A program made the translations under genes and the position numbers. The notes under the pieces are model-generated. The model searched no databases, was not told the DNA's origin, and saw only the letters and a program-made list of their open reading frames with translations. Shown one piece after another: positions 1,938-64,000 of a stretch of 64,000 bases of DNA (positions within the stretch are counted from its first letter, which is position 1; each line of letters starts with the position of its first letter). This stretch comes from Escherichia phage A73: the sequence record OP778609; one strand, given 5' to 3'.

Positions 1938-3476
1938 ATGGCAAAACTTACGATTGAAGAAAGCAATATGATTGAAATGCAAGTCTCTGAAGCAGAGCGT
2001 ATCATCGAGGCTGCTAGTCTACAACTGATGCGGTTTAAGCCCTTCTACGGGGTAATGCTTTCGTCTATGCCTGTTAAAAAGGCGACGGAGTGGTGTAGTA
2101 CAATGGCGACTGATGGACGTAACCTGTATTACCATCCAGAGTTCGTTGCAGGTATGACAGAAGAACGTAAAAAATTGGTACTTGATCGACTTTCCAAAAC
2201 TGAGAAAGATCCTAAAAAGCTGAAAGAGTCCACTGAGTTTATTAATGTCTTCTATCGTCGCAAGACTGCCCGTGAGCTTGCTCTTATTCTTGAGCACGAA
2301 TGCGATCATGTGATCTCTGATCATGCCTCTCGCGGTAAAGGATTTAATCATGAACTTTACAACATTGCAGCGGATCATCGTATCAATACAACGGCGGTTC
2401 TTATTCACCAAAAGGGGGATGAGTTAGGTAAGGCATGGTTCCCTGCCGGAGAAAGAACAGTATTCGATAAGAATGCAGAATTTGGATTTATGGCCTGGTC
2501 TTACTGTGATTTCCGATTCAAAGATATGTATACTGAGCAGATCTATGAAATCCTGAATAAAGAGCAAGATGATAAAGAAAAATCCAAAGGGAAAGGTTCT
2601 GGTTCTGGAAGTGAAGAGGGTGATGGTGAAGAAGGTGGTCAAGGTCGTAAAGGTGTTGATCAGCACATGGATCAGAATGGTGATCCAGAAGATTCAGAAG
2701 GTGATGGTATCGAAGATGCACTAGGAATCGACCGTAAAGCGAAGCCTAAGCAAACAGCAGAGGAACGCCAGTATAACGATGGGGTTATGCGTCGAGCCAT
2801 TGAGAATGCCGTACAGGCAGCAGGAAGCGGTGCACCGGAAGATGCTCGTCGTTTTGTAGAAGCGGCGGGTAAACCAAAGATTAATTATCTTCGTTTGTTG
2901 CGTAAAACTATTGAACGTCTGTTCAAAGATGATGTATCATATCGTCGTTTGTCACGCCGTAGTCACTCGTTAACTCGGACTCTTCGTGGCTCGGGTTACT
3001 TATCTGGACGACAGACGATTGGTTTACCCTCAAAGAATAAACAGAAGACTATTCGTGCAGGTGTCTTCTTCGACGTATCGGGATCATTTAACGATGATCT
3101 ATTGCGTCCAACAATGCGTGAGATTCGTGGATTATGTAATCTTTACGACGAATTTGAGGTCACGATGGCTTGCTGGTCAACAAAGGTTGGTAACATCGAG
3201 ACGTATACGAAAAGAAACGTTGGTGAGATTGCTGACTATAAGATCAAAACGACATTTGGTACGGATGTTTCTTGTGTGTTTGAAGCATTAGATGAAATGA
3301 AAGACCCTATGGATCAGATCATCATCTATACTGACGGTTACTTTGCTGATGTATCCCAAAAGAAAGATTGGGCCAAAAAGTATGGTAAGAATGTTCTTTG
3401 GATCATCCTGGGTCGTGGGTCTTCGTTCACCCCACCTTTCGGTAAGGCAATTGATTTTGACAAGTATCTTAAATAA
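1938..3476 (+). CDS. VWA-domain protein with N-terminal HExxH metallopeptidase-like region
   Basis: MIDAS-type DxSxS (FFDVSGSF); HECDH motif; Gly/acidic low-complexity linker; directly follows AAA ATPase. Confidence 0.75.
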   Translation: MAKLTIEESNMIEMQVSEAERIIEAASLQLMRFKPFYGVMLSSMPVKKATEWCSTMATDGRNLYYHPEFVAGMTEERKKLVLDRLSKTEKDPKKLKESTEFINVFYRRKTARELALILEHECDHVISDHASRGKGFNHELYNIAADHRINTTAVLIHQKGDELGKAWFPAGERTVFDKNAEFGFMAWSYCDFRFKDMYTEQIYEILNKEQDDKEKSKGKGSGSGSEEGDGEEGGQGRKGVDQHMDQNGDPEDSEGDGIEDALGIDRKAKPKQTAEERQYNDGVMRRAIENAVQAAGSGAPEDARRFVEAAGKPKINYLRLLRKTIERLFKDDVSYRRLSRRSHSLTRTLRGSGYLSGRQTIGLPSKNKQKTIRAGVFFDVSGSFNDDLLRPTMREIRGLCNLYDEFEVTMACWSTKVGNIETYTKRNVGEIADYKIKTTFGTDVSCVFEALDEMKDPMDQIIIYTDGYFADVSQKKDWAKKYGKNVLWIILGRGSSFTPPFGKAIDFDKYLK

Positions 3477-3485
3477 GGAGGGTCT

Positions 3486-3857
3486 TTGAGCGAGTATACT
3501 TACAAGTTGTCAGTTGGTAGGCGTGGTGTGGTTATGACTATCAACATGATTAATGAGAGTGCGGAGGCTGTGAAGTGGTGGGCCTCCACCTTCAACGGGA
3601 AAGGTTTTACTTTATCGCGTCATAAGATTGAATCAGGAAAGCCGATAGATCTTGTCAAGGAGGACACTTTCTTGTATCCTGATCGTATCAGTGATGAAGA
3701 TATTGATTTCCTGTCCGCTACGGTTGGTAGTCTGTTAGATGAGGAGCCAGATATTGTAAGGTTGCTCTCTTTGCTTTCCGCAATGTGGTCAGCAGGTCAT
3801 GATGAGGAAAGTATGCATACGATGGTAAGGAATACGTTGAGACGTTGGTCTAAGTAA
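3486..3857 (+). CDS. hypothetical protein (123 aa)
   Basis: TTG start 6 nt after strong RBS AAGGAGG; no motif. Confidence 0.5.
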   Translation: MSEYTYKLSVGRRGVVMTINMINESAEAVKWWASTFNGKGFTLSRHKIESGKPIDLVKEDTFLYPDRISDEDIDFLSATVGSLLDEEPDIVRLLSLLSAMWSAGHDEESMHTMVRNTLRRWSK

Positions 3858-3910
3858 CAACATTTCCTTTATGCCCATTTAGGCATACAATACTATATTA
3901 GATGATAAAC

Positions 3911-3946
3911 CCCTCAACCTGCTCGGTTGCTTCGACGGGGTTTATA
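3911..3946 (+). terminator. imperfect hairpin followed by T-rich run
   Basis: CCCC..CAACC-loop-GGTTG..GGGG then TTTATAT. Confidence 0.35.
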
Positions 3947-4016
3947 TATCTATTAAAAAATTAACCACACTCACATTCGTTCGGTACTTAATTTTTTAAG
4001 TCACCACAAAATTGTG

Positions 4017-5093: not shown

Positions 5094-5611
5094 AAGTCAC
5101 AGAAAGCTTAGTTAAAAAGGTTCGAATAGAAGAACTCCAGGAAGAAAGGCTCGATCCTATCGAGGTTATCATTGAGAACTACGAGAATGGAAGAGGTAAG
5201 CTTATAGTCACCTCAAGTGGCAAGTCTTGGGTAGGCCAATGGAATGCAATGGGAGGTAGTGTAGAGTCCTTCATCCAACGTGTAGATAATGACTACCTTA
5301 TCGGATGTATGGGGCGAGCGCCTAAATTTATTGAAGATAAGGATGAAGATCCTGTTTTCATTAAGAAGATGATCTTGAAGCAACGCCGGACCGATTCAAT
5401 AACTAAAGGGCAGGCGAAATGGGCTTGGGATTATACGGAGACGTTTGCCCCTGACCGTGATCATATCTTTCATGGGGTTCCTTTTGCGCTTCAACCCTTG
5501 AGGGAGTTAGAAGAGCCTTGGCATCTTGACTGGCCTACAAAAATCAATACTGAATATACGCATCAAAGTGAGATTTTGGATGTTGTTCGTAAAGTTATAA
5601 AGCCAAATTAA
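5090..5611 (+). CDS. hypothetical protein (173 aa)
   Basis: ORF in gene-dense + block; ATGA coupling with upstream ORF. Confidence 0.6.
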   Translation: MKVTESLVKKVRIEELQEERLDPIEVIIENYENGRGKLIVTSSGKSWVGQWNAMGGSVESFIQRVDNDYLIGCMGRAPKFIEDKDEDPVFIKKMILKQRRTDSITKGQAKWAWDYTETFAPDRDHIFHGVPFALQPLRELEEPWHLDWPTKINTEYTHQSEILDVVRKVIKPN

Positions 5612-5623
5612 TCACAAAAGGGG

Positions 5624-5652
5624 TTGACGAGAGTCACCCCCTGAGCTAAACT
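5624..5652 (+). promoter_or_regulatory. sigma70-type promoter TTGACG-17-TAAACT overlapping a hairpin
   Basis: -35 lies in stem GGGGTTGAC/GTCACCCC. Confidence 0.45.
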
Positions 5653-5681
5653 TCAGTTATCAAAACAAAGAGGAGAAAGAA

Positions 5682-10695: not shown

Positions 10696-10923
10696 ATGGC
10701 TATCGTAATCACTCGCGTATCTGGTACAGTTGGCAATGCGGCAGTAGTAGCGGTTATCACTAACAAGAAAGGTGCGGAACTACATTTTGCAATGTATAAC
10801 TGGTCAGTTGATGAGTTTGGTCAGTACGCTAGTGTAGAATACATTGAAACCTATCAAGTGCCGTCGATTAGTTTAACTGATTTGGGCGTTGAGCGTATCC
10901 TTTGCCTGGATGAATTAAATTAA
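10696..10923 (+). CDS. hypothetical protein (75 aa)
   Basis: ATG with AAAGGAA RBS. Confidence 0.55.
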   Translation: MAIVITRVSGTVGNAAVVAVITNKKGAELHFAMYNWSVDEFGQYASVEYIETYQVPSISLTDLGVERILCLDELN

Positions 10924-10931
10924 AAAAGTAC

Positions 10932-10959
10932 TTGCAAAGTAAGTCGGATAAAGTATAAT
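10932..10959 (+). promoter_or_regulatory. sigma70 promoter TTGCAA-16-TATAAT with leader hairpin
   Basis: hairpin GGGGAGAAATGATTCTCCCC (about 10972-10991). Confidence 0.6.
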
Positions 10960-11008
10960 ACATTACATCAAGGGGAGAAATGATTCTCCCCACTAAAAGG
11001 AAACTAAA

Positions 11009-37176: not shown

Positions 37177-37665
37177 TTATGGGCAACACCGTGGAGATCT
37201 TCCACAGAAGAATTGCCAATTGGTTTCTGAGTCTTTGTAATTTACAAACCCTATCCTTCCGCACCCTTGTCCACTACAAACAGCCTCACGAGGATGATAG
37301 TCTATACTACAAGAGTGTGGATGGTCAAATGCTTCTCGTATTTCAACACATAGTCGGCTTAACCAGGCGAACATTTTTGGCATAGAAGCCTCAAGAAGTT
37401 TAAGTTCGTCGATCGTAGGTTTGTCTTTCTCAAGGAAGAAGTCATCTATCTCGGAAAACAAAATAACGTTTTGAACTATCCCGTCAGTTACCTTGTAAGA
37501 GAACTCCTCAGTAAGCCTCACGGTAACTTCCTCTATCAGTTCTTTTTCATTATCTTGATCTTTTGCCAGTCTTTCCTCAATCCATCGGATAATGAAGAAT
37601 CTTTCTCTCTGAACATCCATGTTCAAAGTGTTGATTATTTTTTCATAGATTAGGTTTCCTTCCAT
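37177..37665 (-). CDS. hypothetical protein with C-terminal Cys-rich zinc-finger-like tail (162 aa)
   Basis: HPHSCSIDYH..CSGQGCGR..CGRSPRCC; also carries FLEKDKPTIDELKLLEASMP family motif. Confidence 0.5.
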   Translation of the reverse strand: MEGNLIYEKIINTLNMDVQRERFFIIRWIEERLAKDQDNEKELIEEVTVRLTEEFSYKVTDGIVQNVILFSEIDDFFLEKDKPTIDELKLLEASMPKMFAWLSRLCVEIREAFDHPHSCSIDYHPREAVCSGQGCGRIGFVNYKDSETNWQFFCGRSPRCCP

Positions 37666-38777
37666 ACCTTGTCTTGTGCCTCCAGGATAAGTTTTTCAAC
37701 AATCTTCAGATCTGTTTTCTTTGGTAAGCTCGATTGCTTATAAAGAACATCTGTGATCATTTTATCTTTTTCTTCAGCCCAGTCAACAATTTCTTCATAG
37801 CGGTATTCACCATTTCGGATTGCGAGGAGTTCTTCAGCGTCTGGTCGATTCACTAAAACTTTACCTTCTGTGAGGATTTCTTCACCCATCCGAAGAAGCC
37901 GGACCAAATGCATAGCATGTTTAGTGTCGTAACCGAACTTCTCTTCCAGTTCATGACGCTTCTCGTTACGATTCTTAACCCATTCCCAATAGTTGTGGTG
38001 TTTCTCCTTGGCCCATTTATGATCGTCAGCACAATACTTAACAATCATCAGTGTCTTACCTCTTTTAACTTCATCTGGGATTTCTTCATAGTCCAGCTTA
38101 CGGATAGAACCATCTTTGTTAAACATAGGTTCAACATTTTCACGACGATCCTCTACAACGCCGTAAATGTTACTGCCGTAATGAACCAAAGTACAGAAGC
38201 CTTCCATGTTTTTAAATTTACGAACAAAGTCTTCGTACTTCAACTCACCTTCTCCGAGATAGCTCTGCACCAGACGGAAATAGTCAAATTGAGTTGGTGG
38301 CTCTTTTGGTTGCGGATTATTAATGTGTTTGTTGTGACCCTTGATCCGCTTTAACTGAGACATTGCATAACCACTGAAGCGAAATGCAACTTCACGAGAC
38401 AGTAAGGAGTAGAAATGTTCTTTCATCTCTTTCCAAGCTTCGTGCTCGTACAATGTGGCTTTCGGATCAGTAAAACCCAGTTCAATGATATTTGGGTTCA
38501 TCTTCGAAAACAGTTGAAGGAAAGTTCCCAATTCGTAGATCTTAGCATCCTCTTCACCAGGGATGTTTAATTCAGTAACCTCTTTGAATGGGGTACGAAC
38601 CACATTTGGGGTTGCAACAAAAACCCCACGGATATCAATATCACTACCTTCGTTATTCGTACCATACGCATGAGATCCTGCCAGACTCAACATCAGTACC
38701 TTCGCCACGTCTGGATGATTTTCCATCTTCTCTACGATACTTTTTACCTTTCCAGCACTCACAACTGAATTTTCCAT
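37650..38777 (-). CDS. Pol-beta-superfamily nucleotidyltransferase (375 aa)
   Basis: GS-x10-DIDI motif (AGSHAYGTNNEGSDIDIRGVF); ATG 38777 preceded by GGAGGA. Confidence 0.6.
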   Translation of the reverse strand: MENSVVSAGKVKSIVEKMENHPDVAKVLMLSLAGSHAYGTNNEGSDIDIRGVFVATPNVVRTPFKEVTELNIPGEEDAKIYELGTFLQLFSKMNPNIIELGFTDPKATLYEHEAWKEMKEHFYSLLSREVAFRFSGYAMSQLKRIKGHNKHINNPQPKEPPTQFDYFRLVQSYLGEGELKYEDFVRKFKNMEGFCTLVHYGSNIYGVVEDRRENVEPMFNKDGSIRKLDYEEIPDEVKRGKTLMIVKYCADDHKWAKEKHHNYWEWVKNRNEKRHELEEKFGYDTKHAMHLVRLLRMGEEILTEGKVLVNRPDAEELLAIRNGEYRYEEIVDWAEEKDKMITDVLYKQSSLPKKTDLKIVEKLILEAQDKVWKET

Positions 38778-40436: not shown

Positions 40437-40762
40437 TTTTTAACTCCGAAGATCTTAGATAGTAATTTATCATTCCCGATAGTTACACCACAAAAACTTT
40501 TTACTCCGTATACTAGATACGACCCGATTGTAACACAGATAATGATCGGATAAACAAGATACCAAAAGAATGTTGCAAGTATCCACCCTGCCATCACCAT
40601 ACGTAAATTTACATTTTCGTTATTCAGTGGCTCCAGGATATAAATATCCTCACAATCTTTTGGGAAGGGGATGTTGAACCCCTTCTGCCGTAATTTGATC
40701 AGTAAGAACCAAAGTGGGCAACTAATAAGACAACCTATTAAATAACCTTCAACCATTTTCAC
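40433..40762 (-). CDS. small membrane protein, paralog (109 aa)
   Basis: tandem duplicate of ORF 40116. Confidence 0.5.
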   Translation of the reverse strand: MKMVEGYLIGCLISCPLWFLLIKLRQKGFNIPFPKDCEDIYILEPLNNENVNLRMVMAGWILATFFWYLVYPIIICVTIGSYLVYGVKSFCGVTIGNDKLLSKIFGVKK

Positions 40763-41999
40763 TCTCCTTCAACTTGTCAAGATATTGTGTAACGTATCTT
40801 ACTTTTACATTTCGGATTCTGCTCTTGATCTCATCTGGACGTCCCGCGAATTTTTCAGAAATCTCTTTACTTTCTTTTGAGATTGCAACACTGTTCTGAA
40901 TAATCCCCGCCAGTGCTGAGAATAATACCAGTGGTTGACTGTAGTTGTCAAACATTTTTTCAGGTCCACGCCCACGAGCATCACAGATGCAAGCGTCAAT
41001 AAATTCAGAGAGGAATGCTTGGTCCTTTTCACCACGTAAGGCTACTAACAAGTCATAAACTTTCTTTGGCTTCATTTCTTTGATACGGTGAAGTCGTGTA
41101 TGATGCTCAGTTACAGCTAAAGCCAACTTCTTCCAATTATTGGGGACACCAAAGCGATCACAAACTTGTTCAGTTAACTTGATACCATGTTCTTCGTGAC
41201 CGTGCAGTTTACCCGTTAGCCAATAAATACATTTACCTAAGTCGTGACAAAGGACTGCCCACTTCACAGCCTCACTTGCACGAGTCGCCTGGGCATAATC
41301 CATGCAAAGTAAAGTGTGAACAAATGCATCACCTTCAGGATGGTGCTCCTTGGGTTGAACAACATCGTATAAATCCACAAGCTCAGGAAATTCTCCCAGT
41401 TGAGTCAACATACGGATCATTACCGAAGGTTTATTCATTTCTGACTGATCACTGAAGCATTTCTTAATCTCTGCAAATTTACGCTCTTTTGGCAATGCAC
41501 TTAAATCCACACTCCGACACATTAGCCAAGTGTCAGGATCAATTGTAAACTCACCGCCGTATCTGGCATGTAATCTGGCTAGTCGGTACACACGTAAAGG
41601 GTCTTCGATAAATGCTTTAGTGGATACACAACGTAACCGACGAAGTTCAATATCCATTGCACCATTACAAGGGTCGATAATTTCGCCCGTGGAAATATCC
41701 TTGGCGATCGCATTAATGGTTAAATCTCTTCGCATCAGGTCTTGTTCAATTGTAACGTCTGGAGAGAACACAACTTCGAAATCGTGATAACCAGGGCCTG
41801 TTGATCTTTCCGTTCGAGCAAGAGCATACTCTTCTTTAGTGTTCGGTTCAAGGTACACAGGGAAAGCTGCACCAACCTTAGTAAATCCCTTCTCAATCAT
41901 TTCTTCATGGGTCGCTCCAACTACAACGTAGTCACGATCCTTGCTTTCAACACTCATTAGTTCATCGCGAACTGCACCACCTACCAAGTAAACTTTCAT
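40749..41999 (-). CDS. cca: tRNA nucleotidyltransferase (CCA-adding enzyme) with HD domain
   Basis: head-domain motif YLVGGAVRDEL; HD motif LCHDLGK; ATG 41999 (MKVYLVGG) preceded by GGAGAAGAAGGA; track start 42047. Confidence 0.75.
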   Translation of the reverse strand: MKVYLVGGAVRDELMSVESKDRDYVVVGATHEEMIEKGFTKVGAAFPVYLEPNTKEEYALARTERSTGPGYHDFEVVFSPDVTIEQDLMRRDLTINAIAKDISTGEIIDPCNGAMDIELRRLRCVSTKAFIEDPLRVYRLARLHARYGGEFTIDPDTWLMCRSVDLSALPKERKFAEIKKCFSDQSEMNKPSVMIRMLTQLGEFPELVDLYDVVQPKEHHPEGDAFVHTLLCMDYAQATRASEAVKWAVLCHDLGKCIYWLTGKLHGHEEHGIKLTEQVCDRFGVPNNWKKLALAVTEHHTRLHRIKEMKPKKVYDLLVALRGEKDQAFLSEFIDACICDARGRGPEKMFDNYSQPLVLFSALAGIIQNSVAISKESKEISEKFAGRPDEIKSRIRNVKVRYVTQYLDKLKESENG

Positions 42000-42037
42000 T
42001 CCTTCTTCTCCCATTCTTTCCAATTCTGCATGTCCGC

Positions 42038-42202
42038 TCATAGCCATCCCCTTTCTTTATACCCTTTTGTAAATCCTGATTCCCAATCTTGAAATTGCTC
42101 CGGCATGGTGTTTGGATTATACGGGTTGTTTCTCTTGAACATCCCAAACTTGAATCCAGCGGCTCGGCCCTTCTCGTATGCTGAACTGCTTTTTCTTGTC
42201 AT
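42038..42202 (-). CDS. small basic protein (54 aa)
   Basis: ATG 42202 preceded by GAGGAG; track start 42232. Confidence 0.45.
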   Translation of the reverse strand: MTRKSSSAYEKGRAAGFKFGMFKRNNPYNPNTMPEQFQDWESGFTKGYKERGWL

Positions 42203-43125: not shown

Positions 43126-43971
43126 TTATTTGCCCCCTTCTTTCGCCGCAGTGATGATCTGTTCAATTAACTCATCACGATAATAAACGTACTGTTCAAC
43201 ACCGAAACATTCCGCAATCTCGTCTAGTTCGTCGAGGTTGTACTCGTCAAAGTCTCGTGGGTTAAGAGTAAAGATGTTGAATTTTTTGGCGTAGCCTTCG
43301 TCGAGGACGATTTCAAATTCTCCCTCTCCGATTTCCTTCGCATCATCAACATCACTCGATTCGATTGACCCTTCAACCTTAATCCCCCCTGTATTTTGTT
43401 GATCGGCTTCCATTTGCTTTTTAATTGCTTCATCTTCAGCGGTCAAACGGGCTTGCATCTGAGAGGAAGTGAAGTAAATTTCGCCAGCACGATCAAACAG
43501 TTCAACGAGTTCATCTTCTGTCATAACACCCTTGTACAGATCGTAGTATTTCTCTTTGAACAGGTCTTTGTAGAAATCGCTACGTTTAAATACCAGTGCT
43601 GAATCACCACCCATACTCATCTGAACGTTGTGGAACATGTAATGAGAACCTGGACGACAAATTCGAACATGACCAGACAAGAAGATCATTGTTGCAGCAC
43701 TTGCCACTTCACCAATACCGTGTGTTACAACAGTCGCCTTTGTTTCAGAGATCGCTGTCATGTACATATCTGCGATATCACAATAACCACCACAAGAAGT
43801 AATGTACAGATTTACAATATCACCTTCAGGTGCTGAACGAATCAGGTCAACAGCCTCGATATGTGCTTCAGGTGAATTGTGCAGATCCGTAACATAAATA
43901 CGCCAATCGTTAGAAGTTACTGGAGACACCCAAATGTTTTTTGCCGGACCATTCATTACGATTTCTTCCAT
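43126..43971 (-). CDS. ClpP-family serine protease-like protein (281 aa)
   Basis: YITSCGGY..GEVASAATMIFLSG..MFHN matches ClpP core; acidic C-terminal extension. Confidence 0.6.
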   Translation of the reverse strand: MEEIVMNGPAKNIWVSPVTSNDWRIYVTDLHNSPEAHIEAVDLIRSAPEGDIVNLYITSCGGYCDIADMYMTAISETKATVVTHGIGEVASAATMIFLSGHVRICRPGSHYMFHNVQMSMGGDSALVFKRSDFYKDLFKEKYYDLYKGVMTEDELVELFDRAGEIYFTSSQMQARLTAEDEAIKKQMEADQQNTGGIKVEGSIESSDVDDAKEIGEGEFEIVLDEGYAKKFNIFTLNPRDFDEYNLDELDEIAECFGVEQYVYYRDELIEQIITAAKEGGK

Positions 43972-58805: not shown

Positions 58806-59033
58806 TTATTTAAAAAATTCGATTACATCGGCAACAGCAAAGTCACGGATATCTTGTTTATCTACATCATACGCTTTCATAAACCACTGTTCGCCACGAT
58901 GATAGGGCGATTCACCATACCACATCACTGGCGTTCCAGTTACAGTACGATAACCACACTCACCTTTCCAATTGCGATAATAAAACCGCAGGGTTGGTAA
59001 ACCGTAGGTGTTATGGTCAACTTCTTGACTCAT
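58806..59033 (-). CDS. hypothetical protein (75 aa)
   Basis: ATG 59033 preceded by GAGGAGG; track start 59051 is TTG. Confidence 0.45.
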   Translation of the reverse strand: MSQEVDHNTYGLPTLRFYYRNWKGECGYRTVTGTPVMWYGESPYHRGEQWFMKAYDVDKQDIRDFAVADVIEFFK

Positions 59034-59595
59034 ACAAATAACCCTCCTCAAGTTTATCGATAAACGCTTTTACATAAAGAGTTATCATCTCTCCTTTATC
59101 CAAGCTCTCATCGATAACTACATTGTATCTCAATAAAGCGTTCGTTGCAATTGTTTCTTTCTTTAATCTCTTCAAATATTTTTTCAGGTCAGCAACAATC
59201 TCACCATGAAATTTCCTTGAAGAGTAATCCCTTTCGAGATAGTCAGCCATTCTACGCAGAACTTCACTCATTGTCAAGTCTGTTTTATCTTCCATATGTT
59301 TAGACCAAAGTTTTTGTACACCACCTTCGAAAAGGTTAAGAGTGCTTCCAATAACGCCCCTTACCTTTCCGTCGAAGTGGTCATGGTCCAAACAAGGCTT
59401 CTCCATAACTTCACCCAGTATAGCACAAACTCCTTGTTGGTCAAGCAATATTTCATCACGATATTTTGCTATTTCTTTTGACCCACTTACCCAAAGATCC
59501 TTATTTAGTTTCACACGGATAGGTGTAGTCGCCTTATCCTTTGCTGTGAATAGAGGCTTCTTTGACCGCCGCTTCCTCACTCTCGGTACTCGCAT
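59017..59595 (-). CDS. endonuclease VII-like (His-Me finger) junction-resolving nuclease
   Basis: CAILGEVMEKPCLDHDHFDGKVRGVIGSTLN matches the C..C..LDHDH..G.VRG core. Confidence 0.55.
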   Translation of the reverse strand: MRVPRVRKRRSKKPLFTAKDKATTPIRVKLNKDLWVSGSKEIAKYRDEILLDQQGVCAILGEVMEKPCLDHDHFDGKVRGVIGSTLNLFEGGVQKLWSKHMEDKTDLTMSEVLRRMADYLERDYSSRKFHGEIVADLKKYLKRLKKETIATNALLRYNVVIDESLDKGEMITLYVKAFIDKLEEGYLYESRS

Positions 59596-60746: not shown

Positions 60747-61054
60747 GCTGATTCCCCTTCTTCGGTATTATCAAGATAATGATACTGGTCGATTAAGAAC
60801 ACATAGTTCTTTACTTCTCCGTCCATGTAAACCATAAAAGTTACATATTTCTCATCATAGAACGGATCACCAACAACATAGATCTGGCAGATAGAATCAA
60901 CACGTTTGTCAAACCACTGGATTCGCCAAGGCTCCTCAAGCATAGTCCAAGGTTCTTCAATCTTGTAGACCTGGCGCTTTGCGCCAGGAACGAGTGCTGC
61001 ACGAATTTCGTCAGCGATCATAACATCATCAAAACTCTCAGAAAAACCCGACAT
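60743..61054 (-). CDS. hypothetical protein (103 aa)
   Basis: ATG verified. Confidence 0.5.
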   Translation of the reverse strand: MSGFSESFDDVMIADEIRAALVPGAKRQVYKIEEPWTMLEEPWRIQWFDKRVDSICQIYVVGDPFYDEKYVTFMVYMDGEVKNYVFLIDQYHYLDNTEEGESA

Positions 61055-62163
61055 TAAATACCTACCCGTTTTAAAGTTGAGGCTAATGTTGTCTTATCAT
61101 TTTCTGTACGCTTCATATAAACACACTGGAAAATGACAGAAGCCCACTGACCCGCCGAAAACTTACGATGATTACCTAAATGATCTGTGTATTCAACACC
61201 ATCAGGAAACCACTTCTTATATTGATCAATAATAGCCAACCACATACTCTTCTCGTCTGCACAAGGGGAGATGACCTGGAAAGCCGATGTTTCACCAAAG
61301 CGAAGACCCTCGAAGGTTTGATATGGTTTAACGTTATCCGCTGCATCACCAAATAGCATTTGGTAACCGAAGAATTTCTTACCCCAACCTTTTACCTTAC
61401 CAGACTCCATCCAGATCTCACCCATAGAATCATCGATCAACCAAAGTTCAGGATGTTTCCATGTACGCTCTGTTGAGTCACGCATTGTGTTAAACAACAA
61501 AGAAGGAACCTGAACCTGATCCTTATCGAATGATGCCACAATATGACTAAACTTTCCAGTCTTCCGATAATTTAAATATCCTTTATATCCAAGGATCGAT
61601 AAATAATCATCTGCCTCAATACCATCCACAATGATCGCACCATACTTCTGCTGAACATATCGACGAGTCTCCCCAAGCAACAGAGGACGTAAAGTATCTT
61701 CACGGTTACCCTTATAGATCTCAGGGGTCGGGAGTGCAAGACGGAAGTTACCACTCCCACCTAAAACACCAAGCCCGTTTGCTGATCCTACGTGTTCAAG
61801 AATAGCATTGATCTTAATCTTCAATAAGTGAAGACAGTTCTCCACTGGTTCTGGAGTTTGCTTTTCAATGATCTCGAAATCATCACGGGTCCACGGAGTA
61901 AATTCTTTTCCGCGAGCAACCGCTTTTGCTTCCATATTAATGTTTTGGTCTTTTAACCATCCACCAACAACATTCTTTTGGCGACCCCAGAATTCTGTTC
62001 GATTTTTAAACTCTTTCTCTCGGCCTGTTTCTTTGTGCCGAGCAATGATCGTTCGCTTCTCTGCACCTGCCGCAGCCACGTATGCTGTCTGGTCCAGATC
62101 CAATGCCACGACAACATTATCTTCGACAATACCTGACCAATCTTTAATTACCGGATAACCCAT
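61054..62163 (-). CDS. possible FEN/5'-3' exonuclease-like protein (369 aa)
   Basis: motif VDGIEADDYLSILG resembles FEN E-A-D-D acidic cluster; weak call. Confidence 0.3.
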   Translation of the reverse strand: MGYPVIKDWSGIVEDNVVVALDLDQTAYVAAAGAEKRTIIARHKETGREKEFKNRTEFWGRQKNVVGGWLKDQNINMEAKAVARGKEFTPWTRDDFEIIEKQTPEPVENCLHLLKIKINAILEHVGSANGLGVLGGSGNFRLALPTPEIYKGNREDTLRPLLLGETRRYVQQKYGAIIVDGIEADDYLSILGYKGYLNYRKTGKFSHIVASFDKDQVQVPSLLFNTMRDSTERTWKHPELWLIDDSMGEIWMESGKVKGWGKKFFGYQMLFGDAADNVKPYQTFEGLRFGETSAFQVISPCADEKSMWLAIIDQYKKWFPDGVEYTDHLGNHRKFSAGQWASVIFQCVYMKRTENDKTTLASTLKRVGI

Positions 62164-62177
62164 GAAATCTCCCCTTA

Positions 62178-62696
62178 TTAAAATGCTTCGCCGTAATCTT
62201 CGTCTTCTTTAACTTCTTTTACTGGTCGCTTAAATTTGAAATCTTGACCCATGTATTCATACAGATAATCAATATTCAAAGACCATTCTTGCTTACTTCT
62301 TTGTCGCCATAAACTAAATTCTTCTTTCAAATAATCAATCGCCTGATCACGAGTGATGTTGTTAACCTTCATGAATTGACGAATTGCCCTTTCAAGGTGT
62401 CCATTCTTTTGTGCTAACCCAGGATGCATGAATTCATGACAAGGTGGGCAAAGACACATAAGGCCGACAAGTTTAACCTCTCCATTTTCAAAAGTCCACT
62501 CTTCATGACATTCTACCGCATGTTTTCTTCCATTACCTCCCTGACCGTTACATATCTGACAATGCCAGTTGTGCTCTGCATAACTTTTCTTGCGGATCTT
62601 ATCCCATTGGGACTGAGTAAGATATGAACGTAAATTGTTATTCCATGCTGTCTGTGGGATTATGCAAATTTTATGTTTTATATCTACCATTTTCAT
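62178..62696 (-). CDS. HNH-like zinc-finger nuclease (172 aa)
   Basis: CQICNG..HAVECHEEW..CLCPPCHEF. Confidence 0.45.
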   Translation of the reverse strand: MKMVDIKHKICIIPQTAWNNNLRSYLTQSQWDKIRKKSYAEHNWHCQICNGQGGNGRKHAVECHEEWTFENGEVKLVGLMCLCPPCHEFMHPGLAQKNGHLERAIRQFMKVNNITRDQAIDYLKEEFSLWRQRSKQEWSLNIDYLYEYMGQDFKFKRPVKEVKEDEDYGEAF

Positions 62697-63202
62697 TTTC
62701 CTCTAAAGTTGCCTTCCAGTTCAGGGTATTTTTCATTTTTTAGATCGAGGTAAGCTTGTTTTGCTTCCTCTTCTGTTTTGCAATACTTCACGTACTCTCG
62801 ACCACCCCTGTTAAGTCTTGCTTGCCAGCAATTACTCTTTTTATGCCAACGATAACCTTTACTCAGTGACCTGTTTACGTTGTTTGCAGATCTATCGACT
62901 TCTCGCAGATTCCAACCTGCATTATTTTGTCTATTCCCGTCTATGTGATCAATATCTCCAAGAGGCCAATACCCATTAAGAATGAAAAACACAACTCTAT
63001 GCGCCCTATAAGTTTTGTCATTAAGATTCCCGTAAAAATAATTACGATCTCCTTTCTTACATGTTGTGAAGGCGGGATCTCCTATCTCAGACCTTATTCT
63101 CTTTATCTTCCAACGAAGACCTGTATAACTTGACTCATCAACCCCCAGCGATAACTTTATATTTTCAAGTTCCTCCTCGGTTGGGACTCTAACTTTTGTC
63201 AT
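62693..63202 (-). CDS. HNH homing endonuclease with AP2-like DNA-binding domain
   Basis: HNH core LGDIDHIDGNRQNNAGWNLR; AP2-like GYRWHKKSNCWQARL. Confidence 0.75.
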   Translation of the reverse strand: MTKVRVPTEEELENIKLSLGVDESSYTGLRWKIKRIRSEIGDPAFTTCKKGDRNYFYGNLNDKTYRAHRVVFFILNGYWPLGDIDHIDGNRQNNAGWNLREVDRSANNVNRSLSKGYRWHKKSNCWQARLNRGGREYVKYCKTEEEAKQAYLDLKNEKYPELEGNFRGK

Positions 63203-63754
63203 TTAATATGCCTCACATTTACCAATCATATTCATAGCTTCAGAAACATCGATAATCATATCGGTTGCTTCGTCCCAAGCTTTCCCCAAGAGATTCTCAC
63301 CATACCAGAAACTTTCATCATCTACCATAGGGTGATTCTCATCCATACCGATCCCCCATATACGATCTCTCGGAGAAGCCTCTACAAACTTTAAACCCTT
63401 TTTACGGTAACCTACCGCAAGTTCACGGAGATTACCATTATCACACATACGACTATACACTAAACGGGTTACAATGTTAAATTTATTTTCATCCCAAACT
63501 GCCTGATCAAAATCCTTAACTTTACGACCTAGCCTTTTAGCACCTTGTGGAGTTACAGATTTAAGGATTCTTTCCGCTGAAGCTTTGTCACCGAAAAGCA
63601 TAGCCTTTTCATACATCATGTAATGCTCACCTGTGTGGAAATAAACCCCTTTCATCTTCTGGTCGAAGTTTGAAAACGGAGAGATCTCCTGGTAATGATT
63701 ACTAAAAACATCACGAAAAGAATAAAAGAACACATGTTTATCAGTGACTCGCAT
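63203..63754 (-). CDS. NADAR-domain (YbiA-like) protein
   Basis: HVFFYSFRDVFSNHYQ..FHTGEHYMMYEKAMLFGD..RIWGIGMDENH; ATG 63754 preceded by TAGGAG; track ORF extends to GTG 63847. Confidence 0.6.
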   Translation of the reverse strand: MRVTDKHVFFYSFRDVFSNHYQEISPFSNFDQKMKGVYFHTGEHYMMYEKAMLFGDKASAERILKSVTPQGAKRLGRKVKDFDQAVWDENKFNIVTRLVYSRMCDNGNLRELAVGYRKKGLKFVEASPRDRIWGIGMDENHPMVDDESFWYGENLLGKAWDEATDMIIDVSEAMNMIGKCEAY

Positions 63755-63894
63755 AAAAACTCCTATAGATCTAATGCAGATATTGAAATCAAGAATAGCA
63801 CTACCGAAAGTAATCCGTCCGGCGTACTGAAAAATCCAATCCAGCACGCTCTTGTGAACAGGTAGAATGCCAGTATTAAAACGATAACCCCTAA

Positions 63895-63999
63895 GAATGT
63901 TTCGATTTTTCTAACTCCCGAGCCATAATCTTCGTAATGTCAGCAAACGCAACATAAGCATGTTTGTAACAACCTACATCAACATTGAGAGACTTGATC
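63895..63999 (-). CDS. 3' end of an upstream gene (partial, continues beyond window)
   Basis: open frame entering from window edge; about 35 codons to TAG stop. Confidence 0.3.
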
Positions 64000-64000
64000 T

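Follow-up and report, generated by a model that had tools for sequence, protein, structure and literature searches.

Near the end of a 64,000-nucleotide stretch of DNA from Escherichia phage A73 (record OP778609; the whole stretch is hereafter the window), a gene for a NADAR-domain protein lies beside two genes of HNH type, and this arrangement raises the questions of what the NADAR protein does for the phage and whether it arrived with its neighbours. The original prediction answered that the protein counters DarT-type ADP-ribosylating toxins and that its gene was acquired horizontally in the company of mobile HNH endonucleases. In the analysis reported here, the NADAR protein is read, with a probability of roughly 0.7, as a stand-alone glycohydrolase of the AdfN kind, which would act on guanine-linked ADP-ribose in DNA and have an anti-DarTG1 role; both substrate and role are extrapolated from AdfN-Bas60, AdfN-Bas32, AdfN-T4, and other tested NADARs.

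Positions 61000-64000 of the window showed 100% identity to the DNA of Escherichia phage W70 (OP778610.1; Septuagintavirus, Vequintavirinae). Over its first ~23 kb the window shared only 93-97% identity with W70 and was shifted relative to it, and the coordinates of the W70 GenBank record are therefore not transferable to the whole window. The interval 62178-63754 consists of three co-oriented ORFs on the minus strand, the first of which is the NADAR gene (63203-63754, minus strand, 183 aa, equivalent to W70_174), whose product is predicted to be a guanine-ADP-ribose DNA glycohydrolase of AdfN type. The ATG at 63754 is preceded by an AGGAG ribosome-binding site and is the start annotated for NADAR in phages UPEC06 and LTH01, and the N-terminus that it gives, M-R/K-V-T-D-K, is kept across four genera; the W70 GenBank record instead begins the gene at a GTG (63847), a start that probably lies 31 codons too far upstream. 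Upstream lies an untranslated spacer of 136 nt (63755-63890, minus strand), in which a promoter and terminator scan found no promoter-like site and the predicted RNA fold was not significant (z=-0.83). No Rfam match was obtained in 61000-64000. None of the seven small genes upstream of NADAR matched Pfam, and one of them matched a PHROG annotated 'anti-restriction nuclease'. Among Septuagintavirus genomes the dN/dS of NADAR was 0.02-0.05, and the gene is under strong purifying selection. The copy in the sister phage A7_1 is putatively frameshifted, and the gene would therefore be dispensable on K-12.

The 183-aa protein was matched by the Pfam NADAR family PF08719 (DUF1768) with E=6.3e-37 and 127.8 bits (curated gathering cut-off, 35.1 bits) over profile positions 11-158 of 163. 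The signature on which the original prediction was built was found in full, as SFRDVFSNHYQ (residues 12-22), EHYMMYEKA (43-51), and WGIGMDENH (133-141). Used as a single sequence, the protein matched the Phytophthora nicotianae NADAR (PnNADAR, PDB 8bau) with E=4e-13, scoring 53 bits versus 29 bits for E. coli YbiA. A family profile compared with PDB sequences gave E=7e-37 for PnNADAR and 1e-19 for YbiA, and the Geobacter lovleyi NADAR structures of Schuller et al. were not among the matches of that profile. The AF2 model was obtained with a pLDDT of 97 and a pTM of 0.91. Foldseek placed 8bau (PnNADAR with ADP-ribose) as its best PDB match (E=7e-10, TM 0.74) and 2b3w (YbiA) as its second (E=8e-6, TM 0.69-0.75), with nothing significant beyond these two. 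As modelled, the protein has the NADAR (YbiA-like) alpha+beta fold.

In PnNADAR, ADP-ribose is contacted by E43, K50, K75, G78, R79, W89, E125, D130, and W133, which align to E43, K50, K73, G76, R77, W87, E125, D130, and W133 of the window protein. The first eight of these positions are invariant in 73 homologues, and W133 is conserved in at least 90% of them. By phmmer and MAFFT, the catalytic Glu/Lys pair E43/K50 corresponds to E43/K50 of PnNADAR, E88/K95 of the E. coli C7 (EcC7) protein, and E36/K43 of T4 AdfN, and it is invariant in every characterised NADAR that was aligned. A third acidic residue, at the distal-ribose site, is known to vary by subtype, being Glu in the YbiA type, Asp in BC4488/DarG1, and His in the T4 type; in the window protein it is E125, within FVEASPRD, as in YbiA, PnNADAR, and AdfN-Bas60. 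Alignment with characterised NADARs, proposed as a check alongside the original prediction, thus found all catalytic and ADP-ribose-binding residues kept, and by this measure the NADAR is complete.

Among experimentally tested proteins, the closest relative is AdfN-Bas60, which was identified via its locus tag as bas60_0111 of Escherichia phage PaulScherrer (Justusliebigvirus), a phage of the related rV5-like group. AdfN-Bas60 alone neutralises DarT1 and restores plaquing of RB69, T5, and Bas25 on DarTG1 hosts; none of the phage NADARs tested in the same study was effective against DarTG2, which is thymidine-specific (Johannesman et al. 2025, PMC11825919). It was aligned to the window protein at 39% identity over 170 aa (E=7e-32) and branched as the sister of the NADARs of Vequintavirinae in a rough neighbour-joining tree (BLOSUM62 distances, without support values, AdfN-Bas32 and DarG1 left out). 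The resemblance extends to being phage-borne and stand-alone, at 183 aa, with no toxin gene adjoining, and to the catalytic Glu and Lys, the YbiA-type Glu, and a lysine equivalent to K73. The differences are the identity of only 39%, the setting of the gene, which in phi92 and Bas60 sits after a large Zn-ribbon 'endonuclease' gene, unlike in the window, and the fact that AdfN-Bas60 has been tested by experiment, whereas the W70-type protein of the window is known from sequence.

Other characterised NADARs resemble the window protein in part. PnNADAR was the top PDB match by both sequence and structure, and its ADP-ribose-contacting residues are near-identical to those of the window protein even in numbering; it differs in being eukaryotic and in carrying an insertion of ~16 residues after the WGIG motif. 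AdfN-T4 (gp30.3) is likewise a phage orphan NADAR with the catalytic Glu and Lys, encoded downstream of the DNA ligase gene, among genes of DNA metabolism, but it shares only 20% identity and has His for Glu125 and Gln for K73; its full activity depends on the T-even infection context. The Glu/Lys pair and the lysine equivalent to K115 also link the window protein to DarG1 (BC4488 subfamily; E. coli C7, Geobacter lovleyi), and hydrolysis of the guanine-ADP-ribose bond that DarT1 makes, the reaction of DarG1, is predicted for the window protein. In contrast to DarG1, the window NADAR has no adjoining darT1, has Glu where DarG1 has Asp (D171 in EcC7), and lacks the basic N-terminal extension of ~45 residues (catalytic Glu at 43 versus 88 in EcC7). 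E. coli YbiA (2B3W) resembles the window protein in fold (TM 0.69-0.75), in the Glu at position 125, and in matching the NCBIfam model TIGR02464, but differs in sequence (29% identity) and in having Ala in place of K73; its gene belongs to a LexA-controlled chromosomal operon with dinG.

The lysine at position 73 may bear on activity in the cell. NADARs of E. coli and phages, representing all four subtypes tested, hydrolyse guanine-ADP-ribose in vitro and do not hydrolyse thymidine-ADP-ribose, and some NADARs remove cytidine-ADP-ribose as well. Despite their in-vitro hydrolysis of guanine-ADP-ribose, YbiA and T4 gp30.3 did not rescue cells from DarT1. In the EcC7 NADAR, K115 is required for rescue in vivo and dispensable for catalysis. 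Position 73 of the window protein is the K115 position of EcC7, and it is occupied by lysine in W70 and AdfN-Bas60, by Ala in YbiA, and by Gln in T4 AdfN.

On this basis the following course of events is proposed. In a host with DarTG1, DarT1 would place ADP-ribose on guanines of single-stranded phage DNA and replication would be blocked. The NADAR protein would bind the ADP-ribose, with the diphosphate held by K50, R77, W87, and W133, F82 stacked on the adenine, and the distal ribose held by E43 and E125. It would then cleave the N-glycosidic bond to guanine, by which the DNA would become normal again and replication could proceed. The two neighbouring HNH genes would play no part in this function. 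No ADP-ribosyltransferase gene was found near NADAR, either in the 15 kb annotated W70 locus or by Pfam and PHROGs searches of the genes up to ~5 kb downstream of it and 2 kb upstream of it, and the NADAR gene is therefore an orphan. The counter-DarT claim is thus retained in narrower form: it is supported for DarT1 and DarTG1, by the tested phage NADARs including AdfN-Bas60, and not for the thymidine-specific DarTG2. Counterpoints to the AdfN assignment include that the nearest tested AdfN shares only 39% identity and that hydrolysis of guanine-ADP-ribose in vitro is no guarantee of protection in vivo, as YbiA and T4 gp30.3 illustrate. AdfN function and the counter-DarT1 activity of phage NADARs are already known, and the window protein is most likely a further, predicted member of this class.

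The second question, whether the NADAR gene travelled with its neighbours, was addressed through the two HNH genes separately. The proximal one (62693-63202, minus strand, 169 aa, equivalent to W70_175) encodes a product matched by Pfam HNH_3 (E=2.2e-11, 43.6 bits, cut-off 24.8) and by phrog_99 'HNH endonuclease' (E=3e-42), and from its domain and context it is a putative free-standing homing endonuclease. The HNH_3 gene is placed precisely between the stop codon of NADAR and the gene that follows, with the junction TAAATG, and is absent from four of five Septuagintavirus genomes (A5-4, UPEC06, LTH01, and A7_1). Its closest homologues (66%) occupy the same slot between NADAR and the HNH-like gene in the Pectobacterium phages phiTE, CB7, and PcCB7V; homologues at 40% identity were found in DU_PP_I and DU_PP_IV. 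Comparison by blastn delimited a replaced tract at 62313-63198 (minus strand; breakpoints 63198/63199 and 62312/62313), which comprises the HNH_3 gene and two-thirds of the HNH-like gene, from the 5' side of the latter. This tract had no DNA match in the four sister phages and was nearest to Certrevirus DNA, at 69-72% identity. The W70_176 protein shares 80% identity with the CR3 protein versus 65-67% within its own genus, and the replacement of the flanking 62313-62692 is compatible with co-conversion. The HNH_3 gene is mobile and arrived beside a pre-existing NADAR gene, and its arrival overwrote part of the neighbouring HNH-like gene. The HNH_3 domain, the presence or absence of the gene among near-identical genomes, the intergenic slot shared with distant genera, and a replaced tract reaching into the flanking gene are features in common with free-standing HNH homing endonucleases of large lytic phages.

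The distal gene (62178-62696, minus strand, 172 aa, equivalent to W70_176) encodes an HNH-like zinc-finger nuclease, which is mosaic here. Its product was matched by phrog_5200 'HNH endonuclease' (E=2.8e-70) and by four weaker HNH-annotated PHROGs, and 51 homologues share the motif CxxC...H-E...CxxCH...H without variation. Pfam HNH was not found above threshold for this family, the best match being E=0.026, obtained in 4 of 11 family members. The HNH-type assignment is accordingly firm for 62693-63202 and likely, though weaker, for 62178-62696. In each of the five Septuagintavirus genomes, as well as in Certrevirus, Seunavirus, Mydovirus, and Vequintavirus, the exonuclease gene is preceded by the distal gene, either directly or with inserted genes between the two. 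The distal gene is a resident of the whole subfamily and not mobile, so that the earlier description of mobile HNH endonucleases applies to the proximal HNH_3 gene only. When the profiles of the two HNH families were compared with each other, no relationship was detected, and the two genes are therefore not recent paralogues.

The exonuclease gene (61054-62163, minus strand; phrog_107, E=7e-66) serves as a conserved downstream anchor of gene order. NADAR, the HNH-like gene, and the exonuclease follow one another in this order in Certrevirus (CR3, phiTE), Seunavirus (PVP-SE1), Mydovirus (Mydo), and Septuagintavirus. The identity of the exonuclease was 77, 68, and 67% to CR3, Mydo, and PVP-SE1, respectively, and that of NADAR was 56, 53, and 50% across Certrevirus, Mydovirus, and Seunavirus, which is the same ranking. 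No compositional sign of horizontal transfer was found (NADAR GC 0.391, local 0.41). With the gene order conserved in four genera and the GC content unremarkable, horizontal acquisition of NADAR together with the HNH genes is not upheld. Nor is the reading of NADAR as HNH-linked cargo supported, the distal HNH gene being resident and the HNH_3 gene having come to an existing NADAR. Mobile genes next door are by themselves no proof of cargo status. The NADAR gene, which heads a replication/recombination block containing the HNH-like nuclease, the exonuclease, a RuvC-like protein, endonuclease VII, and a polymerase exonuclease subunit, would instead have been inherited vertically in most Vequintavirinae genera.

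Several other functions were weighed against the AdfN assignment. Since some NADARs remove cytidine-ADP-ribose, the natural substrate range may be wider than guanine. A bolder proposal, which is judged unlikely, is that the Vequintavirinae NADAR erases base-linked ADP-ribose broadly, from guanine and cytidine alike, in DNA and perhaps in RNA, or that it acts on soluble ADP-ribose-derived immune signals. In a weaker variant, its conserved place in front of the HNH-like nuclease and the exonuclease would reflect a dedicated repair pathway for ADP-ribosylated DNA; broad erasure or action on soluble signals would confer resistance to several ADP-ribose-based defences at once.

Rather improbable is an action on small molecules, that is, on soluble ADP-ribose-derived signals or toxins (cyclic ADP-ribose variants, TIR/Thoeris-type) or on ADP-ribose by-products of RNA repair. 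Such soluble derivatives were proposed as targets of most phage NADARs by Iyer, Burroughs, Anantharaman, and Aravind (2022), who argue from how viral NADAR, Macro, SLOG, and Nudix domains are distributed and in which contexts they occur. The window does encode an RlaP-like nucleotidyltransferase of RNA-repair type (37650-38777) and an ORF (40749-42047) whose position corresponds to an annotated CCA-adding enzyme in the collinear record of W70, but these RNA-repair genes are more than 20 kb from NADAR, and NAD-salvage, SLOG, Macro, and Nudix genes were not found adjoining it. Moreover, degradation of such signals has not been demonstrated for any NADAR, all NADARs tested so far take base-linked ADP-ribose off nucleic acid, and the nearest tested relative acts on DarT1-modified DNA. 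Nine large ORFs of the window were compared, and the matches were to RCC1-like repeats, DUF2201 metallopeptidase/VWA, RlaP, and ClpP-like families. Nothing NAD-related was found among them, and a metabolic role through neighbours in NAD salvage or ADP-ribose metabolism was rejected.

A low probability is likewise given to the NADAR protein countering some other ADP-ribose-based defence, by removing ADP-ribose from RNA or cytidine or by binding an ADP-ribosylated defence protein non-enzymatically. In the Retron-Eco1 study, a phage NADAR is said to inhibit the retron by non-enzymatic binding to an ADP-ribosylated defence protein. That work, in which a phage NADAR acts without enzymatic activity, is cited by Johannesman et al. 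(PMC11825919), and the cytidine activity of some NADARs, together with known RNA ADP-ribosylation reversal enzymes and a known mRNA-ADP-ribosylating defence, points the same way. The fully conserved catalytic residues and the strong purifying selection favour an enzyme over a mere binder. Roles of this kind could coexist with anti-DarT1 activity and need not replace it.

Automated annotation suggests yet another function, a YbiA-type N-glycosidase for reactive early riboflavin-biosynthesis intermediates. The NCBIfam model TIGR02464 'riboflavin biosynthesis intermediates N-glycosidase' matched the protein at 128.1 bits (cut-off 73.7), position 125 carries the YbiA-type Glu, and many homologues in phages carry the annotation 'GTP cyclohydrolase II' or 'N-glycosidase YbiA'. 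However, AdfN-Bas60, of proven anti-DarT1 activity, passes TIGR02464 too (109.4 bits), and the model therefore does not separate the two functions. No rib gene was found in the annotated W70 neighbourhood, among the genes scanned within ~5 kb, or among nine large window ORFs, and the 183-aa protein is single-domain, with no RibA or RibD fusion. The far better match to PnNADAR than to E. coli YbiA (53 versus 29 bits), the placement by Johannesman et al. (PMC11825919) of phage NADARs of Bas60 type apart from the YbiA housekeeping group, and the lack of an evident need for riboflavin damage control in a lytic phage also make this function very improbable.

Finally, NADAR, the HNH-like nuclease, and the exonuclease adjoin one another, co-oriented, in four genera and head a recombination/repair block with RuvC-like, endonuclease VII, and polymerase exonuclease subunit genes, but that they form one repair module, for adduct removal or for excision of ADP-ribosylated DNA stretches, is scarcely credible, since Vequintavirus retains both the HNH-like gene and the exonuclease but has no NADAR, Justusliebigvirus (phi92, Bas60) has no phrog_5200-type gene or exonuclease annotated within 3-4 kb of NADAR, plasmid-expressed AdfN-Bas60 works alone, and homing endonuclease genes insert among the three without apparent harm.

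The locus is a clean case of a homing endonuclease entering one slot and overwriting part of the adjoining gene. For the NADAR protein, the automated names in use for the family ('hypothetical', 'swarming motility protein', 'GTP cyclohydrolase II', and 'riboflavin N-glycosidase') include metabolic ones, and the curated NCBIfam model puts a metabolic name even on the validated AdfN-Bas60. If the AdfN assignment is true, the validated class would gain a further clade of roughly 60 or more sequenced phages, and the putatively frameshifted NADAR of A7_1 would offer a natural comparison for plating. Septuagintavirus and most other Vequintavirinae would then have a built-in counter to DarTG1, and, as Certrevirus, Seunavirus, and Mydovirus include candidates for therapy and biocontrol, the anti-DarTG1 trait would bear on the prediction of host range.

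Three co-oriented minus-strand ORFs are present at 62178-63754. The NADAR gene (63203-63754, -, 183 aa), the product of which is referred to here as the W70-type protein, matched Pfam NADAR (127.8 bits, gathering score 35.1; E=6.3e-37) and unnamed PHROG 1017, and all three motifs quoted in the original prediction as a clear NADAR signature were found in it. The adjoining HNH_3 gene (62693-63202, -, 169 aa) matched Pfam HNH_3 (E=2e-11) and phrog_99, and the distal HNH-like gene (62178-62696, -, 172 aa), unrecognised by Pfam, matched phrog_5200 'HNH endonuclease' with E=3e-70. The NADAR CDS in the GenBank records of W70 and A5-4 begins at a GTG 31 codons upstream (window 63755-63847) and encodes 214 aa. 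Since the ATG at 63754 is preceded by an AGGAG ribosome-binding site and gives the N-terminus MRVTDK, which is common to NADAR orthologues of other genera, it is probably the true start and the GTG version too long; this ATG is the annotated start in UPEC06 and LTH01. In the CR3 record the NADAR protein is cut to 140 aa by an internal Met start, and the open frame extends to 185 aa.

Positions 61000-64000 are 100% identical to Escherichia phage W70 (OP778610.1, Vequintavirinae) and, across aligned parts, ~95-98% identical to A5-4, UPEC06, vB_EcoM-LTH01, and A7_1; these five phages make up the proposed genus Septuagintavirus, in the description of which the NADAR gene is undiscussed (PMC11370258). 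Because 23458-50000 is 99.85% identical to W70 and 1-23457 only 93-97%, non-collinear, and offset by ~5.7 kb, the window comes either from a different assembly or from a W70 relative of mosaic make-up. On the NADAR strand of the W70 record (10913-10977 of the analysed part, ~1.9 kb past the window end), a strong terminator hairpin is followed immediately by a perfect sigma-70 consensus promoter (TTGACA-16-TATAAT), the best candidate start for a transcript through seven small ORFs into the NADAR and nuclease genes. One of the seven is assigned to a PHROG that bears the name 'anti-restriction nuclease'.

Several other genes were noted in the window. A capacity for tRNA/RNA repair is suggested by two of them: an RlaP-like 'RNA repair pathway' nucleotidyltransferase (37650-38777, -; Pfam E=7e-19) and an ORF (40749-42047, -) whose position corresponds to an annotated CCA tRNA nucleotidyltransferase in the collinear W70 record. 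Genomic context has linked NADARs to RNA repair, but both genes lie >20 kb from the NADAR gene. Three tandem genes at 26228-29726 (-; 380, 377, and 399 aa) form a paralogous array; each product carries RCC1-like beta-propeller repeats, with Pfam WD40_RLD/RCC1 E-values as low as 2e-25 and scores under the curated cut-off for the whole protein. A DUF2201 metallopeptidase and VWA-like protein (1938-3476, +, 512 aa), a ClpP-like protease homologue (43126-43971, -, 281 aa), and an 81-aa ORF (58806-59051, -) were also seen; the last, flanked by the genes for endonuclease VII and the polymerase exonuclease subunit, gave a strong phrog_3715 match and a sub-threshold WYL-domain match (E=0.001).

Comparison of the W70-type protein with PDB sequences using phmmer retrieved Phytophthora nicotianae NADAR (PnNADAR; 8bau, E=4e-13) and E. 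coli YbiA (2b3w, E=1e-5), and a profile of 73 homologues improved these values to 7e-37 and 1e-19. The AlphaFold2 model (pLDDT 97, pTM 0.91) was searched with Foldseek, and the only significant PDB structure matches were 8bau, with ADP-ribose bound (TM 0.74), and YbiA. PnNADAR contacts ADP-ribose through E43, K50, K75, G78, R79, Y84, D86, W89, R93, E125, D130, and W133; among the equivalents in EcC7, E88, K95, and D171 are required for catalysis, and K115 is needed for in vivo rescue and not for catalysis (Schuller et al. 2023). The residues aligned with these contacts by phmmer are E43, K50, K73, G76, R77, F82, Q84, W87, K91, E125, D130, and W133, of which E43, K50, K73, G76, R77, W87, E125, and D130 are invariant among the 73 homologues and E43, K50, G76, and R77 also in AdfN-Bas60, AdfN-T4, YbiA, and PnNADAR. 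Alignment with characterised NADARs, proposed as a check, bore the assignment out, the catalytic Glu/Lys equivalents E43 and K50 being retained along with E125; position 125 is Glu in AdfN-Bas60, YbiA, and PnNADAR and His in T4, in agreement with published work. The gene is an orphan, and the protein is intact and under selection, with dS of ~0.22-0.31, dN of ~0.005-0.016, and dN/dS of 0.02-0.05 among Septuagintavirus genomes. In A7_1 (OP795442.1; 5845-6488 of the analysed part) the loss of 1 nt from a CCC run divides the NADAR gene into two annotated ORFs, and an L75P change adjoins the invariant G76-R77. This copy may be a true pseudogene or may reflect a sequencing error; should the frameshift be real, A7_1 would provide a naturally NADAR-defective phage for comparing sensitivity to DarTG1, the guanine-specific toxin-antitoxin defence.

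Horizontal acquisition of the NADAR gene, with which its HNH neighbours had been held consistent, was not upheld. The order NADAR, phrog_5200 HNH-like gene, exonuclease (61054-62163) recurs in Cronobacter phage CR3 (Certrevirus), Proteus phage Mydo (Mydovirus), and Salmonella phage PVP-SE1 (Seunavirus), and also, interrupted by additional HNH genes, in Pectobacterium phage phiTE. Identities to W70 for CR3, Mydo, and PVP-SE1 share one rank order (NADAR 56, 53, and 50%; exonuclease 77, 68, and 67%), and the NADAR GC content is 0.391 against 0.41 locally; gene order, ranking, and composition together are in keeping with vertical inheritance in the subfamily. NADAR is missing from Vequintavirus JES2013, which retains the other two genes, HNH-like and exonuclease. 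Of the two neighbours taken to be mobile, only the HNH_3 gene is so. The HNH-like gene, found in 242 phage records that include all genera compared, is a resident of the subfamily rather than a mobile gene; its Cys/His motif is invariant among homologues, and its model resembles HNH nucleases weakly. The HNH_3 gene behaves like a homing endonuclease: it has no counterpart in four of four sister phages, where the NADAR stop meets the HNH-like start at the same TAAATG, and its closest homologues (66%) occupy exactly this slot in phiTE, CB7, and PcCB7V. Tract 62313-63198, which covers the HNH_3 gene and two-thirds of the HNH-like gene from its 5' end, matches none of the sister phages at the DNA level and is 69-72% identical to Certrevirus DNA; as a result the W70 HNH-like protein is closer to its CR3 counterpart (80%) than to those of its own genus (65-67%). 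We read this as replacement by co-conversion accompanying HNH_3 invasion. The NADAR gene is untouched, the sequence from 63199 onward being 99.75% identical to A5-4. The mobility argument thus runs the wrong way round: the endonuclease moved in beside a NADAR gene already present rather than bringing it. A second slot, in the gap between the HNH-like and exonuclease genes, holds a different HNH_3/AP2-like family shared by one Septuagintavirus (A5-4, 5164-5658 of the analysed part) and one Certrevirus (phiTE, likewise 3500-4015), two 'transposase' ORFs in JES2013, and a 59-aa ORF in A7_1.

Fold, active-site residues, selection, and orphan status were shown directly, whereas the substrate and biological role of the W70-type protein were inferred from experiments on its relatives. 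T4 gp30.3 (AdfN-T4) is a DNA ADP-ribosylglycohydrolase that allows T-even phages to replicate in DarTG1 hosts, and the two unrelated phage NADARs AdfN-Bas32 and AdfN-Bas60 each neutralise DarT1 alone (Johannesman et al. 2025, PMC11825919) and each restored RB69, T5, and Bas25 on DarTG1 hosts (PMC11825919). AdfN-Bas60, identified as bas60_0111 of phage PaulScherrer (Justusliebigvirus; 3001-3549 of the analysed part), has 183 aa, shares 39% identity with the W70-type protein across 170 residues, and in a rough neighbour-joining tree is sister to the clade of W70, Certrevirus, Mydovirus, and Seunavirus NADARs. A lysine corresponding to EcC7 K115 occurs in the W70-type protein (K73), AdfN-Bas60, and PnNADAR, whereas YbiA has Ala and AdfN-T4 has Gln; both of the latter reportedly fail to protect cells against DarT1 by themselves (Cihlova et al. 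2024; PMC11825919). This lysine may mark autonomous anti-DarT1 activity, the cases being few and the sample small. The suggested counter-DarT role has family-level support and a validated member in a related phage group, but for DarT1 only: none of AdfN-T4, AdfN-Bas32, and AdfN-Bas60 was effective against thymidine-specific DarTG2 (0/3; PMC11825919); all four E. coli/phage NADAR subtypes tested hydrolysed guanine-ADP-ribose and not thymidine-ADP-ribose (Cihlova et al. 2024). From the relatives' experiments, the kinship with AdfN-Bas60, and the K73 pattern, the W70-type protein is predicted, with a probability of roughly 0.7, to be an autonomous guanine-ADP-ribose DNA glycohydrolase countering DarTG1-type defence.

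A wider substrate range or a non-enzymatic binding role is improbable; some NADARs remove cytidine-ADP-ribose, and a passage in Johannesman et al. (PMC11825919) cites non-enzymatic action of a phage NADAR against Retron-Eco1, but the invariant active site counts against a purely binding role. Iyer et al. (2022) proposed soluble signals derived from ADP-ribose as the main targets of degradation by phage NADARs, a role considered similarly unlikely here. Riboflavin N-glycosidase activity is very improbable: the W70-type protein passes NCBIfam TIGR02464 'riboflavin biosynthesis intermediates N-glycosidase' (128 bits, cut-off 73.7), but so does the validated anti-DarT1 AdfN-Bas60 (109 bits), so that passing it does not distinguish one function from the other, and neither riboflavin nor NAD-salvage genes were found among the neighbouring annotations or the genes scanned. 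Since this equivalog-domain model passes AdfN-Bas60, automated naming of phage NADARs is systematically misleading. The NCBIfam model 'NADAR family anti-phage protein' (DS32_2, bacterial) gave YbiA 102 bits, below the model cut-off. Anti-DarT function was already established for the NADAR family in 2023-2025, and the W70-type protein, as a predicted anti-DarTG1 glycohydrolase, would be a further member.
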